From assembly GCF_048287365.2 (NCBI RefSeq), contig NZ_JBLWEM020000070.1:98456-122455 (forward strand): DNA of 24,000 bases, read 5' to 3'. A program made the translations under genes and the position numbers. Source of the stretch: Candidatus Electronema sp. JC (lineage in GTDB: Bacteria; Desulfobacterota; Desulfobulbia; Desulfobulbales; Desulfobulbaceae). The notes under the pieces are model-generated. The model ran no database searches, was not told the DNA's origin, and saw nothing but the letters and a program-made list of their open reading frames with translations. Below are positions 7,945 through 18,522 of this stretch, one piece after another. Position 1 is the stretch's first letter. The number at the start of each line of letters is the position of its first letter.

Positions 7945-8634
7945 TCAAAATTGAATTGCATGTGCAAGATAAAGCAGAATGATAGTGCCGAAAATTCCGG
8001 CAATCACGATGACGGCCAGCCAAGCGCAGGCTCTGATCAGGCCGTTGCACCGGGGATAATTGAGGCCAAAAGTCTGCGTCAGCGACCAGAAGCCATGGCT
8101 GATGTGCAGAGTCAAAGCCGCCACTCCGACGACGTGGAGCAGTGCTGGCAGCGGCTCGGTCAAGGCCCTGCCGAGCCGTTCGGCTGTCGGCAGAGCTGGG
8201 TCAGCAAACCGCACTGTGGCCAAATGCACGAGGAGGAAAGCCAGCACCGCCGTCCCTGTCCACGGCATGGCCCGCGAGGTCAAGGTCTGTCCTCCGGCGG
8301 CGGCGCTGACGGTGCTCCTGCCGCCTTTGGCCCGGCGGTTGCTGACAAAAAGGCTGAGGCCGGTCAGCGCATGAAGCAGAAAAACAGCAGCCAGCAGCAG
8401 ACCCGCCAGCGGCAGCAGCAGGCGGTATTCGCGCAGATGTTCGGCATAGGCGGTGAACGCTTCACGGCTTTGGAGCAGCAGGCTGTTGCCAGCGGCGTGA
8501 GCCAGCAGGAACAAGCCGAGCAGCAGGCCGGTCATGGCCATGATGTATTTTTTGCCCAGAGAGGAGCGGCAGAGGCGGAGCAGGCGGGACATGCGTCTGA
8601 ACGTGATAATTGACCCGAACATGGGCGGCAGCAT
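7945..8634 (-). CDS. Succinate dehydrogenase / fumarate reductase cytochrome b subunit-like membrane protein (b558 SdhC type)
   Basis: SSLGKKYIMAMTGLLLGLFLLAHAAGN at the N-terminus, about five hydrophobic helices, and conserved His positions (LLHALTG, LLVHLATV, LTLHISHGFWSLTQTFGL). GAGG lies 8 nt upstream of ATG 8632-8634. No sdhA/sdhB follows. Confidence 0.75.
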   Translation of the reverse strand: MLPPMFGSIITFRRMSRLLRLCRSSLGKKYIMAMTGLLLGLFLLAHAAGNSLLLQSREAFTAYAEHLREYRLLLPLAGLLLAAVFLLHALTGLSLFVSNRRAKGGRSTVSAAAGGQTLTSRAMPWTGTAVLAFLLVHLATVRFADPALPTAERLGRALTEPLPALLHVVGVAALTLHISHGFWSLTQTFGLNYPRCNGLIRACAWLAVIVIAGIFGTIILLYLAHAIQF

Positions 8635-8767: not shown

Positions 8768-8796
8768 TTGCCTCACCGCCGGATAGATTATATATT
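8768..8796 (+). promoter_or_regulatory. Putative sigma70-type promoter for the Cys-rich OMP gene
   Basis: TTGCCT (8768-8773), a 17-nt spacer, then TATATT (8791-8796), about 110 nt upstream of ATG 8905. AGGAGA lies upstream of the ATG. Sequence match only. Confidence 0.4.
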
Positions 8797-8904
8797 TATT
8801 ACCAAAATAAAAGCTGCGCCCTCATTGCGCCTGCCTCTTCCGGAACTGACCGGAATAGGTGCCGCCGCTGAGGGGAAAAATCAACCGAAAAGGAGAGTTG
8901 GGAG

Positions 8905-10011
8905 ATGAGAACAAAGGTGCTGCTGACTGCCGCGATGCTGCTGCTTCTGTCCGCAGGCGGAGCTTTGGCCGGAGGAAAACATAAGAATTACACCTGCGAC
9001 GACTGCTCGCCGGACTGTTTGAAAAATCCCTACGGCAAGGGCTGCCCCGCTGTCTGCCGCTCGCCGGAATGCCAGGAGGCTTCCTGTGACAGCTGCACCC
9101 CGGAGTGCAGAAAAAACCCAAGCGCGGCAGGCTGCCCGGAAATTTGCAAGGATGTCAAGTGCCAGTCCTGCGAGGACTGCACCCCGGAGTGCAAGGTCAA
9201 TCCCGCTGATCCCGCCTGCCCCGACATCTGCAAGGACATCAAATGCTACACCTGCGAGGACTGCACCGCCGACTGCATCATCAATCCGTCCGGCCCCGGT
9301 TGTCCTCCGGCCTGCGCGGATCTCGGCTGCAATGTCTGCGACAAATTCCCCAAGGACTGTCCTGCCTCATGCAAAGACAATTCTGACGATCCGGCAAAAT
9401 GTCCGGAAGCCTGCAAAGGCGTGCCTGAGCAGTGCATTCCGGTGAAGCAGGTCACTTGCGACGACTGTCCGCCCAGCTGCAACGACAATCCTGAGCAATG
9501 CCCGCCGGAATGCCAGGAGCTGAACTGCCATCCCAAACCTGAAAGCCAGGCTGGCCCGCTCCGCTTTGTCGGCGACATCGGCTATTTCAAGCAGACCGAT
9601 CCTGCCGACTACGCCTTTGGCCGCATCGGCGCGGAATGGAGTCCCTTTGCCGCTGGCAGCGATTTTGAGAATGTCTCCTTCCTTGCCATGCTCGGCGTGT
9701 CCGCGCAGGTCGGCGGCACAGACGGCGACGACGCGCTGCTGCTCGACGTGTTCGCCCAGTACAACTGGAAAGCGGGTGACGTGGACGGCTGGATCGGCTT
9801 GGGCGTGGGCGGCTGGATCACCTCCGGCGACGTGGATGACGACTCTGGCGACACGGACATCGATGTGATGGCCAATGTCGGTGCCCGCGTTTATGGCGAT
9901 CCCGACGCGTTCAACGCCTCGCTCTTCCTCGAAATCCGCAGCGCGGTGGACGAGTTTGACGGCTTGGCCGAATATGGCCGCTTCGGCGGCGGTCTGCGGC
10001 TGAAGTTCTAA
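8905..10011 (+). CDS. Secreted cysteine-rich repeat protein with a C-terminal outer-membrane beta-barrel-like domain
   Basis: Sec-type signal peptide MRTKVLLTAAMLLLLSAGGALA/GG. Residues 31-208 carry 36 Cys in repeats of the form C-x2-C-x3-C-x8-CP-x2-C-x4-C. Residues ~220-368 are Gly/Asp/aromatic-rich with alternating hydrophobicity and end in ...GGLRLKF (terminal Phe, OMP beta-signal-like). A strong terminator follows. Confidence 0.85.
   Translation: MRTKVLLTAAMLLLLSAGGALAGGKHKNYTCDDCSPDCLKNPYGKGCPAVCRSPECQEASCDSCTPECRKNPSAAGCPEICKDVKCQSCEDCTPECKVNPADPACPDICKDIKCYTCEDCTADCIINPSGPGCPPACADLGCNVCDKFPKDCPASCKDNSDDPAKCPEACKGVPEQCIPVKQVTCDDCPPSCNDNPEQCPPECQELNCHPKPESQAGPLRFVGDIGYFKQTDPADYAFGRIGAEWSPFAAGSDFENVSFLAMLGVSAQVGGTDGDDALLLDVFAQYNWKAGDVDGWIGLGVGGWITSGDVDDDSGDTDIDVMANVGARVYGDPDAFNASLFLEIRSAVDEFDGLAEYGRFGGGLRLKF
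8995..9528 (+). repeat. In-frame tandem coding repeats (about 84 nt / 28 aa, six units, the last two degenerate)
   Basis: The best units are 9085-9168, 9169-9252 and 9253-9336 (CDSCTPECRKNPSAAGCPEICKDVKCQS / CEDCTPECKVNPADPACPDICKDIKCYT / CEDCTADCIINPSGPGCPPACADLGCNV). Shared DNA strings include tgcgaggactgcacc and ccggagtgca. Confidence 0.9.
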
Positions 10012-10021
10012 GCCGCAGCAG

Positions 10022-10052
10022 GGGGCCTGCGTTCCAGCAGGCCCCTTTTTTT
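10022..10052 (+). terminator. Rho-independent terminator of the Cys-rich OMP gene
   Basis: ggggcctgc (10022-10030), loop gttcca, gcaggcccc (10037-10045), then seven T (10046-10052). Confidence 0.85.
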
Positions 10053-10141
10053 CTTCCGCATTCAGTCAAGTTCATCGGCATTATTCAGCAGTAACTCCTT
10101 GTTTATTTTTATCATTTTTTTTGCTTTCAGCGGGTGCCGAG

Positions 10142-11749
10142 ATGATCACCAGAATGAAAATATCAGGCTTCAAAAATATCGTTGATCTTGATGTCCATTT
10201 CGGTCCATTCACCTGTATTGCCGGAGCGAATGGCATAGGAAAATCAAATCTTTTTGATGCGATCACTTTTCTGAGTTTTCTTTCTGAAAAAACATTTATT
10301 GAAGCAGCGATGTCTGTGCGAGGAGAAGGCGGACGGGCTTCAGACGTGAGGCATCTCTTTCACAGGAATGGAGATATTTACAGCAATACTATGTCTTTTG
10401 AAGTCGAACTAATCATCCCTGCTGAAGGAATTGATGACTATGGGCAGCCTGCAAAAGCCAGCATAACTTCCTTAAGGTACAAAATTATCCTTGCATATAA
10501 ACAAGATGACAACCATCCTTCTCAAGGAATGGTCGAACTCGTTCACGAGAGCTTAGAGCCTATAAAAAAAGGAGATGCTGCCAAATGTTTTCTCTTTTCT
10601 CAGAAAGCTGGAACATGGATAAACTCTGCAATCACAGGCCGACGTGCAGGCGGTCCGTTCATTTCAACCACAAAAAAAGAAAGCGATCAACTCATTCAAA
10701 TGCACCAAGACAGCGGTGGTCAAATGCACCAAGGCAGCGGTGATGGGGAGAAAAAAAAATGGCGGCGCGGCAGTGGACGTTCTTTTCGGGCGGCGGCATT
10801 GCCCAGAACGGTTCTTTCTTCTGCTACAAATGCAGTAGAAAGCCCAACAGCCTTGCTAGTCAGAAGAGAAATGCAGTCGTGGCGGATGCTTCAGCTGGAA
10901 CCTTCAGCACTTCGCAAGCCTGACGATATAACCTCGCCGAGAAGGCTGGGGGCAAATGGCGCACATCTGCCTGCAACGCTTTATCGGCTGGCGGGATGCA
11001 GTCAGCAGGATGCTGAAGATGCGGCAAAGCAATCTGATGGGGAACAAACTGACATCGAAAGTCAAGTCTACGCTGAGCTTGCAAACCAGTTGTCTGAATT
11101 AATTGATGATGTTAATACAGTGAGGGTTGATCGCGATGAAAAACGGGATTTGCTGACACTGGAAGTAGTTGACCGCAACGGAACTGCTCACCCGGCCCGT
11201 TCTTTGTCAGATGGGACTTTGCGTTTTCTGGCCTTGTCAATACTCGGCATGGACAAAGAGGAAAAAGGAGTTCTCTGTTTGGAGGAGCCTGAAAATGGCA
11301 TTCATCCAGAACGAATTCCTGCAATAATTCAACTTATTCAAGAGATTTCGACAAACACTGACATAGAGCTTGACGCAGACAACCCTTTAAATCAAGTGAT
11401 TATTAACACCCACTCTCCGGCTGTAGTGGCGCAAATACCAGATGACTGTCTTCTTATTGCTGAATTAAATGAATATTTGAATCAAGATGGAAAACGAGGC
11501 AGAGGTCTGTCGTTAAGCTGCCTTGATGACACATGGCGTGATAAATTAGAACTACGGCAAAAAATTGTTTCCAGAGGCAAGCTGCTTTCATATCTCAATC
11601 CAATTGAGCCATCCAAGGAAATTCAAAAAGATACAGTCGAAGAAACCGATCCTTCTAATAATAAAACTACAAAAAATGAACAGTCGTCACGCAGTCGCCG
11701 CAGAGTTGTTGACAGGATGCAGCAATGGCTGCCCGGTTTTTCCAAATGA
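10142..11749 (+). CDS. SMC/RecF/OLD-type ABC ATPase (AAA_15/AAA_21-like)
   Basis: MITRMKISGFKNIVDLDVHFGPFTCIAGANGIGKSNLFDAI (N-terminal strand plus Walker A), Q-loop-like WRMLQLEP, signature-like LSDGTLRFLALS, Walker B/D-loop VLCLEEPENGIHP, and H-loop IINTHSP. About 320 aa separate Walker A from the signature motif. The ORF opens at TTG 10121; ATG 10142 (or 10154) is preferred. AT-rich relative to the flanks. Confidence 0.88.
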   Translation: MITRMKISGFKNIVDLDVHFGPFTCIAGANGIGKSNLFDAITFLSFLSEKTFIEAAMSVRGEGGRASDVRHLFHRNGDIYSNTMSFEVELIIPAEGIDDYGQPAKASITSLRYKIILAYKQDDNHPSQGMVELVHESLEPIKKGDAAKCFLFSQKAGTWINSAITGRRAGGPFISTTKKESDQLIQMHQDSGGQMHQGSGDGEKKKWRRGSGRSFRAAALPRTVLSSATNAVESPTALLVRREMQSWRMLQLEPSALRKPDDITSPRRLGANGAHLPATLYRLAGCSQQDAEDAAKQSDGEQTDIESQVYAELANQLSELIDDVNTVRVDRDEKRDLLTLEVVDRNGTAHPARSLSDGTLRFLALSILGMDKEEKGVLCLEEPENGIHPERIPAIIQLIQEISTNTDIELDADNPLNQVIINTHSPAVVAQIPDDCLLIAELNEYLNQDGKRGRGLSLSCLDDTWRDKLELRQKIVSRGKLLSYLNPIEPSKEIQKDTVEETDPSNNKTTKNEQSSRSRRRVVDRMQQWLPGFSK

Positions 11750-12381
11750 AAGAAATACGCTGCACACTTCTTACTGACGGCAGTTCTGACAAAGCCCTGC
11801 TGCCAATCATTTCATGGCTCTTCCGGGAGCATTGTCCAGATTTCGCTGTTCAGAAAGCATGGGCAGACCTGTATAGGCTTCCCAAAGGAACTGTGAAAAC
11901 GTTGCCGGATCGCATCAGATTTAGCATTGAGCTTTATCCATGCGATGTGTTGTTTATTCATAGAGATGCTGAAAAAATGGAGCTGGAGGAAAGAATTGCT
12001 GAGATTCAAACCGCTTTGCAAGACACTGAGCATCCGCCGACAGTCTGTGTTGTGCCAGTCAGAATGACGGAAGCGTGGCTGCTGCATGATGAGCCTGCCA
12101 TCCGGCAGGCGGCAAGCAATCCAAATGGTCGGCAGCCTTTGTCATTGCCAAAAATGAGCAGCGTTGAAAATTTGCCCGATCCGAAACAAACTCTTTATGA
12201 CTTGCTGCGGACGGCAAGCGGGCCGATCAGCCGCAGGAGAAATTTTGATCCGGGCAGAATGGCACATCGCGTTGCAGATCGGATAAGCACCTTTGAACCA
12301 CTGCGTCAATTGTCCGCGTTCAGCAGGTTTGAAAGGGAACTTGTGGCGGCAGCCAAGGAGCAGCGTTGGACAATGTCATAA
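11746..12381 (+). CDS. DUF4276-like / TOPRIM-like small protein, partner of the ABC ATPase
   Basis: ATG 11746-11748 overlaps the ATPase stop TGA 11747-11749 (ATGA). Motifs: MKEIRCTLLTDGSSDKALLP (strand plus acidic motif), VLFIHRDAEK, VVPVRMTEAWLLHDEPAI, and NLPDPKQTLYDLL. Layout and length (211 aa) match my recollection of DUF4276. The family call is from memory and the first acidic motif is atypical (TDG rather than EG). Confidence 0.6.
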   Translation: MKEIRCTLLTDGSSDKALLPIISWLFREHCPDFAVQKAWADLYRLPKGTVKTLPDRIRFSIELYPCDVLFIHRDAEKMELEERIAEIQTALQDTEHPPTVCVVPVRMTEAWLLHDEPAIRQAASNPNGRQPLSLPKMSSVENLPDPKQTLYDLLRTASGPISRRRNFDPGRMAHRVADRISTFEPLRQLSAFSRFERELVAAAKEQRWTMS

Positions 12382-17112: not shown

Positions 17113-18522
17113 TTAGAAAGGAACTTCGTCTTCTTGAATTTGATTTATTGCATCATTACTTTCTTGCGGTTGTATTATCTCATCTTTCTCAAGAAGTTTT
17201 CTGAATTCATCAAAGTTATTAGACTCTTTTTCTATTTCCATATAAAAATCTTTCCATTTATCCTTCCTAATTGTTACGTTGTGTTTTTTTGTCAATTCAT
17301 ATAATTGACAAAAAATTATATCCATCCCGCCAGCATGCAAAATTTGATTTATCCTGCCAGCCCTATTCTTTAAAATTCCATCAAATAATATTTCTATATC
17401 GGAATTTTCAAAATATTTTATATGGGGAAGCAAAAAATCTACTCCGTTCTTGTAAGCTGAATCGAAACTGCCTGAAGTCATAAATAGCCTGATAGCTATT
17501 TCCTTTAACGTACTAGAATCAATCCCCTCTAATAGCTCTTTTAAATTATTTTGATTAAAATTATTGATTCTACTCTGCATCATATCGTTTATTTTTAAGT
17601 TCATTGAAGCCAGCTTTGGAACACTGTATTTATTTAGGTCTTTTCCAGACATTGATGATATTGTCGTTTCGAGACGTAAAATTGTAGCCTTTTCAAGGTA
17701 ATTCCATGCTTCGTTTCTTTTAATTAAAAATAGAAATAGTCTTCTGATTAAATAGTCATTAGTTGCAGCTACAAACTCTTTAAATTTTGTTTTAAACACT
17801 TCTATATATATATCATTGTAAATTCTTTCGATGGCTCCTAAAGCCGAACATATTCTTTCAAAGGATTCTAGATCCAAACCATTTTCATCCTTAAATATCC
17901 GTTTTAATAAAATAATTATCAAATTCCTGACGGTACTTTCCTTGGCTTTACCGAGATAATTATCTGACGAAAGAATTGTATAGGCAGAGTCGTCATTAAC
18001 TGGAAACGAGCTGCCTGAAATAAGATTAAATAAACGATCAATAGCAAATTTTCCTTTTACTGGAGGTCTTGATAATAGATAAGTTGATGCTTGGATAATG
18101 TACGCTTTAGTTAATTCAGAAGATGGATCAAATTGACTACCGTCAGCTAAAAAAGTTGGATGGGCGCAAAAGTTTCTATCTTCTTTCAAACGTTCGAGAT
18201 GTTTCTTCTCAATAACAGATATGAGTTCGATATTCTCACATGCATAGTCGAGTATATTACGCTCAAAATCTAACATGTTATTGATGTCATTTTGTTGTAT
18301 GGAGTTTAGTTTTTTTTCTAATTCGCTTGCTGCTTTATCGCCCTCAAGACTTAACTCGCGAATTTTCTCAATAATATCTACGCATACAGCAATCCAAGTC
18401 GAAATTATTGCCGCTCTGTATGCTCCCGCTCTATACGATGCAATTGCCTCTTCTAAGTATTGCTTGGATGATTCGTTGCGGGTTAATTGCCCGATTTCTG
18501 AAAGGTCTTTTACTCGAAACAT
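17113..18522 (-). CDS. Hypothetical protein with an N-terminal HEPN-like domain (R-x4-H), on a very AT-rich island
   Basis: 469-aa uninterrupted ORF in DNA at roughly 30% GC. N-terminal helix YLEEAIASYRAGAYRAAIISTWIAVCVDIIEKI and, about 85 aa later, LERLKEDRNFCAHP (R116-x4-H121, nt 18160-18177). This is the arrangement seen in DUF4145 / Abi_2-type HEPN domains. The remaining ~320 aa are helical, Lys/Asn/Ile-rich and unrecognised. Confidence 0.6.
   Translation of the reverse strand: MFRVKDLSEIGQLTRNESSKQYLEEAIASYRAGAYRAAIISTWIAVCVDIIEKIRELSLEGDKAASELEKKLNSIQQNDINNMLDFERNILDYACENIELISVIEKKHLERLKEDRNFCAHPTFLADGSQFDPSSELTKAYIIQASTYLLSRPPVKGKFAIDRLFNLISGSSFPVNDDSAYTILSSDNYLGKAKESTVRNLIIILLKRIFKDENGLDLESFERICSALGAIERIYNDIYIEVFKTKFKEFVAATNDYLIRRLFLFLIKRNEAWNYLEKATILRLETTISSMSGKDLNKYSVPKLASMNLKINDMMQSRINNFNQNNLKELLEGIDSSTLKEIAIRLFMTSGSFDSAYKNGVDFLLPHIKYFENSDIEILFDGILKNRAGRINQILHAGGMDIIFCQLYELTKKHNVTIRKDKWKDFYMEIEKESNNFDEFRKLLEKDEIIQPQESNDAINQIQEDEVPF

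Follow-up and report, generated by a model that had tools for sequence, protein, structure and literature searches.

In cable bacteria, electrons travel over centimetres along periplasmic nickel-sulfur (Ni-S) fibres. These conductive fibres have been reported to lie in ridges below the outer membrane, to be rich in both Ni and S and to include a Ni-bis(dithiolene)/Ni(ett) framework that only cable bacteria possess, and density functional theory models have weighed cysteine cross-links to the ends of the Ni(ett) ribbons. The conduction proteins are not yet named in reviews, and a comparative genomics search for a periplasmic Ni-binding fibre protein found no candidate. Our literature searches returned no paper pairing cable bacteria with cysteine-rich or other cysteine terms, and a search on disulfide machinery gave nothing relevant. 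The gene described here is located in a 24,000-nucleotide stretch of the genome of Candidatus (Ca.) Electronema sp. JC (contig NZ_JBLWEM020000070.1, positions 98,456 to 122,455), referred to below in its full length as the window. It encodes a protein of 368 amino acids (aa), in which an array of six-cysteine repeats (Cys6 units) precedes a C-terminal domain of the outer-membrane protein (OMP) type; it is called the Cys-OMP here, and all database names for members of its family read 'hypothetical protein'. The presented results strongly indicate that the repeated Cys6 array is a discrete, conserved module. With a probability of roughly 0.4, we regard this module as a candidate docking surface linked to the Ni-S system, acting either by metal capture or by fibre tethering.

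All 36 Cys of the window protein fall within aa 31-208, a span of 178 residues, as had been counted in a first-pass annotation that a model made from the sequence without database searches. That annotation had ascribed a single fixed spacing to all six units. Six units are indeed present; the exact spacing, however, occurs in four of them, whereas units 5 and 6 differ (Table 1). Common to all six is a twin C-x3-C core, each C-x3-C with a Pro, which is also invariant in the orthologues. At the nucleotide level, Tandem Repeats Finder detected an 84-bp (28-aa) period at 9132-9287. The array consists of 20% Cys, is strongly acidic and contains no C-x-C or CC motifs; the secreted N-terminal part as a whole (aa 23-208, 186 aa) comprises 32 Asp and Glu, 18 Lys and Arg, 1 His, 4 aromatic and 16 Ile, Leu, Val or Met residues. 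The AlphaFold2 (AF2) model, which was run on a 76-sequence alignment and reached a mean predicted local distance difference test score (pLDDT) of 86 for the whole protein, shows the Cys units as one-turn helices with pLDDT above 90, in which the C-x3-C elements each start a short helix. The Cys module modelled alone had a pLDDT of 85 and folded without any ligand.

The Cys6 repeat is an undescribed domain without relatives in sequence or fold. The protein gave no match in Pfam and NCBIfam at E <= 10, a Foldseek comparison of the Cys module with the PDB yielded 0 matches at the same threshold, and PDB sequence and repeat-profile searches returned noise only, such as vaccinia OPG143 at E 0.02. 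The first-pass annotation was therefore right in placing the repeat outside known families, and two of its exclusions were upheld as well. A multihaem cytochrome is rejected by the lack of any CXXCH motif in the window protein and its 75 homologues. A Tat-exported ferredoxin-type Fe-S protein is rejected by the lack of a twin arginine in the signal peptide and of a Fer4 Pfam match at E <= 10; the array contains only two CxxCxxCxxxC strings, both at unit junctions and without a trailing Pro.

The distribution of the protein is as narrow as its repeat is distinct. The closest of the 75 homologues, 92% identical, belongs to Ca. Electronema sp. V4, with whose genome the window is syntenic, and every full-length homologue comes from Ca. 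Electronema, Ca. Electrothrix or metagenomes. A word-indexed search with the Cys module alone was uninformative, missing even the 92%-identical orthologue, and a full scan with a hidden Markov model was used instead. In this exhaustive comparison with 1.84 billion representative proteins, the Cys-module profile matched 3 clusters, all of which represent this protein family. A genome scan that combined a pattern search with tblastn and covered one genome for each of 185,579 species located 19 loci, of which 16 were in named Electronema or Electrothrix and 3 in metagenome-assembled genomes of Desulfobulbaceae; of the latter three, two resemble cable bacteria in synteny or naming. The gene was present in every closed cable-bacterial genome that the searches returned, among them those of E. 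laxa, En. halotolerans and YB6. These results strongly support the confinement of the full-length Cys-array protein to cable bacteria of the genera Electronema and Electrothrix.

Within these genera the Cys columns are invariant across 26 orthologues, and since 36 such columns are kept, the pattern is not a product of chance. The non-Cys positions of the units are conserved at 0.61-0.76, compared with 0.74 in the barrel, and the Asp, Lys and Pro residues beside the Cys are among those maintained. The first-pass annotation had advised a comparison of repeat number among related genomes; the orthologues contain 30, 34, 36 or 48 repeat Cys in 5 to 8 units. Odd total Cys counts stem from extra Cys in the barrel or the N-terminus, while the array counts are always even. 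Units 1-5 are constant in number across species, whereas unit 6 and the linker following it vary, and in the alignment some orthologues lack unit 6, have it duplicated or carry a Pro/Glu spacer in its place. Such a pattern suggests a fixed functional array that is kept at an adjustable distance from the membrane. In the Ca. Electrothrix gigas clade (homologues P0023-P0025, locus L025), a Pro/Glu-rich spacer of about 50 aa, which recalls periplasm-spanning spacers such as that of TonB, takes the place of unit 6, and the giant cable bacteria may keep the array at a greater distance from the outer membrane.

The membrane in question is indicated by the C-terminal domain, whose assignment as an 8-stranded outer-membrane barrel of the OmpA/OmpX/OmpW type is strongly supported by the structural model. 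The domain has 151 aa, among them 25 Gly and 21 Asp, and ends in RLKF, which agrees with the Gly/Asp-rich, OMP-type domain of about 150 aa recognised in the first-pass annotation. AF2 predicts strands at aa 219-230, 234-245, 257-271, 277-290, 293-306, 317-331, 337-347 and 359-367, mostly with pLDDT above 90. Foldseek matched this model to the PDB structures of the OmpA transmembrane domain (OmpA-TM, 1bxw, E 4e-5), NspA (1p4t), PagL (2erv), OmpW (2f1v) and OmpX, with E-values from 4e-5 to about 2e-3, a probability of 1.0 and target-normalised TM-scores (TMt) of 0.5-0.65. The strands alternate between hydrophobic and polar residues, one face of strands 3-8 being 71-100% hydrophobic, and the charged residues facing the barrel lumen are invariant among orthologues. 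The last residue differs between orthologues (F/Y/L/M/H/Q/R), and the Phe at position -3 is usually kept. No match to OMP_b-brl, OmpW or OmpA sequence profiles from Pfam and NCBIfam was obtained at E <= 10, and the relative P0060 reaches merely E 0.15 for OMP_b-brl. An autotransporter was considered for this protein and rejected, as the barrel has 8 strands, not 12, and a linker helix is missing. The predicted outward loops of the barrel (TDP, TDGDD, SGDVDDDSGD and VDEFDGLAEYG; Table 1) are short, very acidic and conserved, which is unusual among OMPs, and their sequences suggest a site that may bind cations or an S-layer. A tandem repeat of 24 bp in 2.1 copies encodes GWIGLGVG/GWITSG and represents a duplication within strand 5.

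Barrels of the 8-stranded OmpA/OmpX class have both termini in the periplasm and are too narrow to export a passenger. Judged from the modelled barrel, the Cys array therefore most likely faces the periplasm and is attached to the outer membrane on its inner side. The first-pass annotation had left the choice between a cell-surface and a periplasm-facing location, and of these the periplasm-facing one is retained. Sec-dependent export of the protein is strongly supported.

The origin of the protein can be traced through its barrel, which is homologous to that of a wider Desulfobulbaceae OMP family (types B-D, P0026-P0076), with 40-56% identity over aa ~215-368. In non-cable relatives the signal peptide is followed by an N-domain of about 150 aa, a PKD-like domain and the barrel, and further architectures combine the N-domain and the barrel directly, with one Cys6 unit between them, or with several. 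In type A, to which the window protein belongs, the N-domain is gone and the Cys6 unit has been amplified to 5-8 copies. Since other Desulfobulbaceae share the barrel but attach other N-terminal modules to it, the Cys array is a cable-bacterial innovation. The metagenomic homologue P0076 (336 aa) has an N-domain, a single Cys6 unit (TCDDCPPECKDNPENCPPECQQLDC) that corresponds to unit 6, and the barrel; judged by its sequence, it looks like the ancestral one-unit state before the amplification of the array. The type with an N-domain and several units (type B) is found directly upstream of the type-A gene, in tandem, in 3 Electronema genomes (S01.Bin068, TJ and PJ; L016 6778-7764, L018 2514-3512 and L020 6977-7774), and these paralogues have fewer Cys units. 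The genes of the non-cable relatives sit among housekeeping genes (RNR, SEC-C, ALAD). At locus L028 (6076-6891 and 7001-8272), a homologous OMP with an N-domain, a PKD-like domain and the barrel is encoded 110 bp behind a ZIP permease gene; this adjacency is limited to one non-cable lineage, the other relatives L030-L032 having no such neighbour. Because type A lost the N-domain and amplified the unit, we infer that the array itself is the functional part of the protein.

What this function may be is suggested in part by the genomic neighbourhood in the other genus. In Electrothrix the gene order Cys-OMP(+), ferredoxin(-), nikM-nikL-nikK-nikQ(+) was found in all 9 species with enough flanking sequence, the nik genes encoding the nickel importer. 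The adjacency to nik genes persists in YB6 despite a different upstream side, and in E. gigas nikL-nikK alone remain at the Cys-OMP locus. The nik locus was described by Hiralal et al. (2024), who marked a 'hyp.' gene nearby and did not analyse it. This linkage to nickel is suggestive; it amounts to moderate evidence, limited to one genus and not involving an operon.

Taken together, the observations may be explained by the following mechanism. Led by the Sec signal peptide, the chain would cross the inner membrane unfolded, its last 151 aa would form the 8-stranded barrel in the outer membrane, and the N-terminal six Cys6 units, each predicted as a compact knot of one-turn helices around the twin C-x3-C core, would be held just below it, provided that the modelled topology is right. 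There the array would act as a thiol/disulfide docking surface serving the Ni-S conduction system. It may retain a thiophilic metal, Ni(II) or another, in the periplasm, or it may tie the sulfur-rich Ni-bis(dithiolene) fibres to the outer membrane through S-metal or S-S contacts. Such a docking or binding role is favoured because the head domain has been lost, the acidic residues beside the Cys are conserved, the habitat is sulfidic, and the gene is linked to nik genes in Electrothrix.

Several facts weigh against a docking role. Histidine is scarce (0-6 per orthologue), unlike in most Ni-binding proteins, and spectroscopy gives dithiolenes, not cysteine thiolates, as the ligands of Ni. The Electronema orthologues, with the window gene among them, are not located near nik genes. 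In Electrothrix the opposite-strand ferredoxin gene parts the Cys-OMP from the nik genes, so that they do not form an operon, and their linkage may reflect inherited gene order rather than function. The periplasmic orientation of the array is deduced from the topology of the barrel. Finally, a purely structural ladder of three disulfides per unit would account just as well for the twin C-x3-C, the even numbers of Cys and the way in which units are gained or lost as wholes.

In this last explanation, which is unlikely but is the main alternative, the array would be a disulfide-laddered stalk or cross-linker, a rigid rod without metal chemistry, stapled in each unit by the bonds C1-C6, C2-C5 and C3-C4. 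It would stiffen or cross-link the envelope, much like the Cys-rich periplasmic proteins OmcB and OmcA of the outer-membrane complex in chlamydiae. The twin C-x3-C core occurs in every unit, the Cys counts of the array are even throughout (30, 34, 36 and 48), units are gained and lost as wholes, and P0076 has a lone one. AF2 also folds the array with confidence in the absence of a ligand, the array contains one His (two in the whole protein), and the envelope skeleton of cable bacteria has been reported to withstand sodium dodecyl sulfate. However, the head domain is gone, so a stalk would carry nothing, and the conserved surface residues, mainly the Asp, Lys and Pro next to the Cys, suggest a specific partner. 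Moreover, disulfides in the periplasm are less favoured in the anoxic and sulfidic sediment that surrounds most cells of a filament. Even as a mere disulfide-laddered tether, the protein would define a new cysteine-repeat domain and provide a lineage marker for cable bacteria.

A more far-reaching form of the docking hypothesis makes the protein the missing partner of the Ni-S wires, an outer-membrane-tethered cysteine template. In this form, which we consider improbable, Cys-S-Ni or Cys-S-S bonds would enable the array to nucleate, cap or anchor the nanoribbons of Ni-bis(dithiolene), or, alternatively, the array would itself carry edge-sharing Ni2S6-type sites. If true, it would give the first genetic handle on the assembly of the conductive fibres. 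The gene in any case offers a testable candidate partner of the fibres, in which four relevant traits coincide: it is specific to cable bacteria, it is predicted to bring 30-48 Cys to the zone directly below the outer membrane that the fibres occupy, its repeat has no known relatives, and it is adjacent to the nickel importer genes in Electrothrix.

It is decidedly improbable that the array serves as a general, metallothionein-like periplasmic sponge for thiophilic metals (Cu, Zn, Cd, Ni) apart from the fibres. Its Cys content and strong acidity would suit such a role, one non-cable relative is encoded directly behind the ZIP metal permease gene, and Cu and S have been found to colocalise in the cell junctions (cartwheels) of cable bacteria. 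Nevertheless, the repeat is defined, conserved and fold-like, in contrast to the loosely conserved C-x-C/CC motifs of metallothioneins; metal stress is common to sulfidic sediments in general, yet the repeat is strictly limited to cable bacteria; and a buffer needs no fixed tether to the outer membrane. Very unlikely, too, is a thiol/persulfide redox or sulfur-carrier array, in which the 36 Cys would cycle between thiol, disulfide and persulfide as a periplasmic buffer in sulfide oxidation. The host oxidises sulfide and must pass the electrons on to the periplasmic fibres, and in Electronema the gene has an orphan di-haem cytochrome b gene as a conserved divergent neighbour. Against this, sulfide oxidation is assigned to the cytoplasmic side in current models, sulfur-metabolism genes are not found nearby, and the protein has neither a feature of the rhodanese, SoxYZ or Sud type nor a family match in Pfam or NCBIfam. 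Display of the array on the cell surface, as an adhesin, an S-layer anchor or a surface for metal-sulfide nucleation, had been proposed in the first-pass annotation and would agree with the PKD-like domain of the relatives, a domain that is often extracellular; we regard it as highly improbable, given the periplasmic termini and narrow bore of the barrel class and the lack of a 12-strand barrel or linker helix of the autotransporter type. A poly-ferredoxin-like Fe-S electron conduit is extremely unlikely, because the C-x2-C-x2-C-x3-C strings where units 2/3 and 3/4 meet (C86-C96 and C114-C124) and the CP dipeptides that would speak for it are outweighed by a signal peptide of the Sec, not the Tat, type, a barrel that must insert unfolded, the missing ferredoxin spacing at the other junctions, the absence of a Fer4 Pfam match at E <= 10 and Raman data that reportedly rule out Fe-S clusters in the fibres.

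The gene that encodes this candidate docking protein is monocistronic and, as the first-pass annotation had read it, forms one open reading frame (ORF) with a Sec signal peptide, its own predicted promoter and a strong terminator (Table 1). The signal peptide, MRTKVLLTAAMLLLLSAGGALA|GG, has a low pLDDT in the AF2 model, with a helix at aa 4-14; a lipoprotein is rejected, since a lipobox is missing. The promoter match lies inside the block TTTTTGCCTTGCC...TTATATA, which is the best-conserved upstream stretch in an alignment of 8 Electronema genomes. Neither at the window gene nor in Electrothrix was an upstream riboswitch or small RNA, including the NiCo type, detected, apart from one sub-threshold terminator-like match.

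Table 1. Positions of the Cys-OMP gene, its parts and other features within the window
Feature	Position	Strand	Basis or remark
ORF without family match, 128 aa	7393-7779	-	overlaps the start of fabD by ~40 nt
Orphan SdhC/FrdC b558-family di-haem cytochrome b, divergent neighbour	7945..8634	-	115 bits for TIGR02046 (cut-off 96)
Sigma-70-like promoter, TTGCCT / 17-nt spacer / TATATT	8768..8796	+	consensus scan
Shine-Dalgarno AAGGAG, 9 nt before ATG	8890..8895	+	from sequence; GGAGAG conserved in the upstream Electronema alignment
Cys-OMP coding sequence, stop codon included	8905..10011	+	ORF list; product of 368 aa
Sec-type signal peptide, aa 1-22, cleavage ALA|GG, no twin arginine, no lipobox	8905..8970	+	from sequence
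Cys6 units 1-4 (aa 31-56, 61-86, 89-114, 117-142)	8995..9330	+	exact C-x2-C-x3-C-x8-CP-x2-C-x4-C, regular expression
Cys6 unit 5 (aa 145-177)	9337..9435	+	divergent C-x6-C-x3-C-x9-CP-x2-C-x6-C; all six Cys invariant
Cys6 unit 6 (aa 185-208), adjoining the barrel	9457..9528	+	loop of 6 residues, not 8
Short variable linker, aa 209-217	9529..9555	+	least conserved part of the protein, majority fraction 0.25
Predicted 8-stranded outer-membrane beta-barrel anchor, aa 218-368, ending RLKF	9556..10008	+	AF2 and Foldseek
Predicted outward barrel loops (aa 231-233, 272-276, 307-316, 348-358)	9595-9603, 9718-9732, 9823-9852, 9946-9978		
Tandem repeat of 24 bp, 2.1 copies	9780-9829		
Intrinsic terminator: stem of 11 bp (8 GC pairs) followed by a T-run	10020-10047	+	strong
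Two-gene module, AAA_15/AAA_21 ATPase and DUF4276 protein	10121-12381	+	GC 0.44-0.46
ORF of 469 aa in a 31% GC island	17113-18522	-	PD-T7-3 anti-phage protein, 133 bits

The divergent cytochrome b gene has no sdhA or sdhB beside it and is the conserved upstream neighbour of the Cys-OMP in 6 other Electronema genomes. It shows no homology to the 176-aa membrane protein encoded upstream in Electrothrix and probably represents genomic context only. The 128-aa ORF shares 70% identity with a portion of a 229-aa gene of V4 and may be a truncated remnant. On the downstream side, the two-gene module matches the PADLOC candidate defence system HEC-01A/B at 319 and 82 bits. Electronema sp. V4 lacks the pair at the corresponding site, where greA comes directly next instead; the pair is therefore a recent insertion. 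The PD-T7-3-like gene is probably a second horizontally acquired defence gene.

Among known systems, the closest in the C-terminal half are the small 8-stranded barrels OmpA-TM, OmpX, NspA, PagL and OmpW, which share with the Cys-OMP the predicted closed antiparallel barrel and the Sec signal. The window protein also ends in Phe, a position that varies among its orthologues. Compared with OmpA the order is reversed, the soluble module being N-terminal and the barrel C-terminal, and the window barrel differs from the small OMPs in having no Pfam or NCBIfam match and in its short, acidic and conserved outward loops. The Desulfobulbaceae types B-D are alike in the barrel, which is a case of true homology, and in the style of the signal peptide; unlike type A, they have an N-domain, with or without the PKD-like domain, together with 0-1 Cys6 units in types C-D and several in type B. 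For the array the resemblances are more distant. The chlamydial proteins OmcB and OmcA offer a possible analogy, as they are likewise Cys-rich, sit at the periplasmic face of the outer membrane and may rigidify or cross-link the envelope by disulfides; OmcB differs in lacking a barrel fusion and a Cys6 tandem repeat, and the window protein shows no sequence similarity to the two, with no Pfam or NCBIfam match at E <= 10. The C-x3-C ... C-x3-C motif, present in all six units, likewise characterises the twin CX3C hairpins of the small Tim proteins and the plant alpha-hairpinins, which can be stapled by disulfides or bind Zn when reduced. Unlike in those hairpins, the predicted helices of the array have one turn, the loop is 6-9 residues long, two extra Cys flank the core, and the units stand in tandem. 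With metallothioneins and Zn2Cys6 clusters the array has its high Cys density in common, and by analogy the six Cys of a unit could bridge two metal ions. Metallothioneins, however, are small proteins with about 30% Cys in C-x-C, CC and C-x2-C clusters and poorly conserved non-Cys residues, whereas the array has 20% Cys, neither C-x-C nor CC, and conserved non-Cys residues; in contrast to both groups, it is extracytoplasmic and fused to a barrel, with a spacing that differs from the Gal4 type and no Pfam match. In this outer-membrane-anchored, probably periplasmic module, the barrel is of an ordinary structural class, and the new part is the Cys6 repeat.

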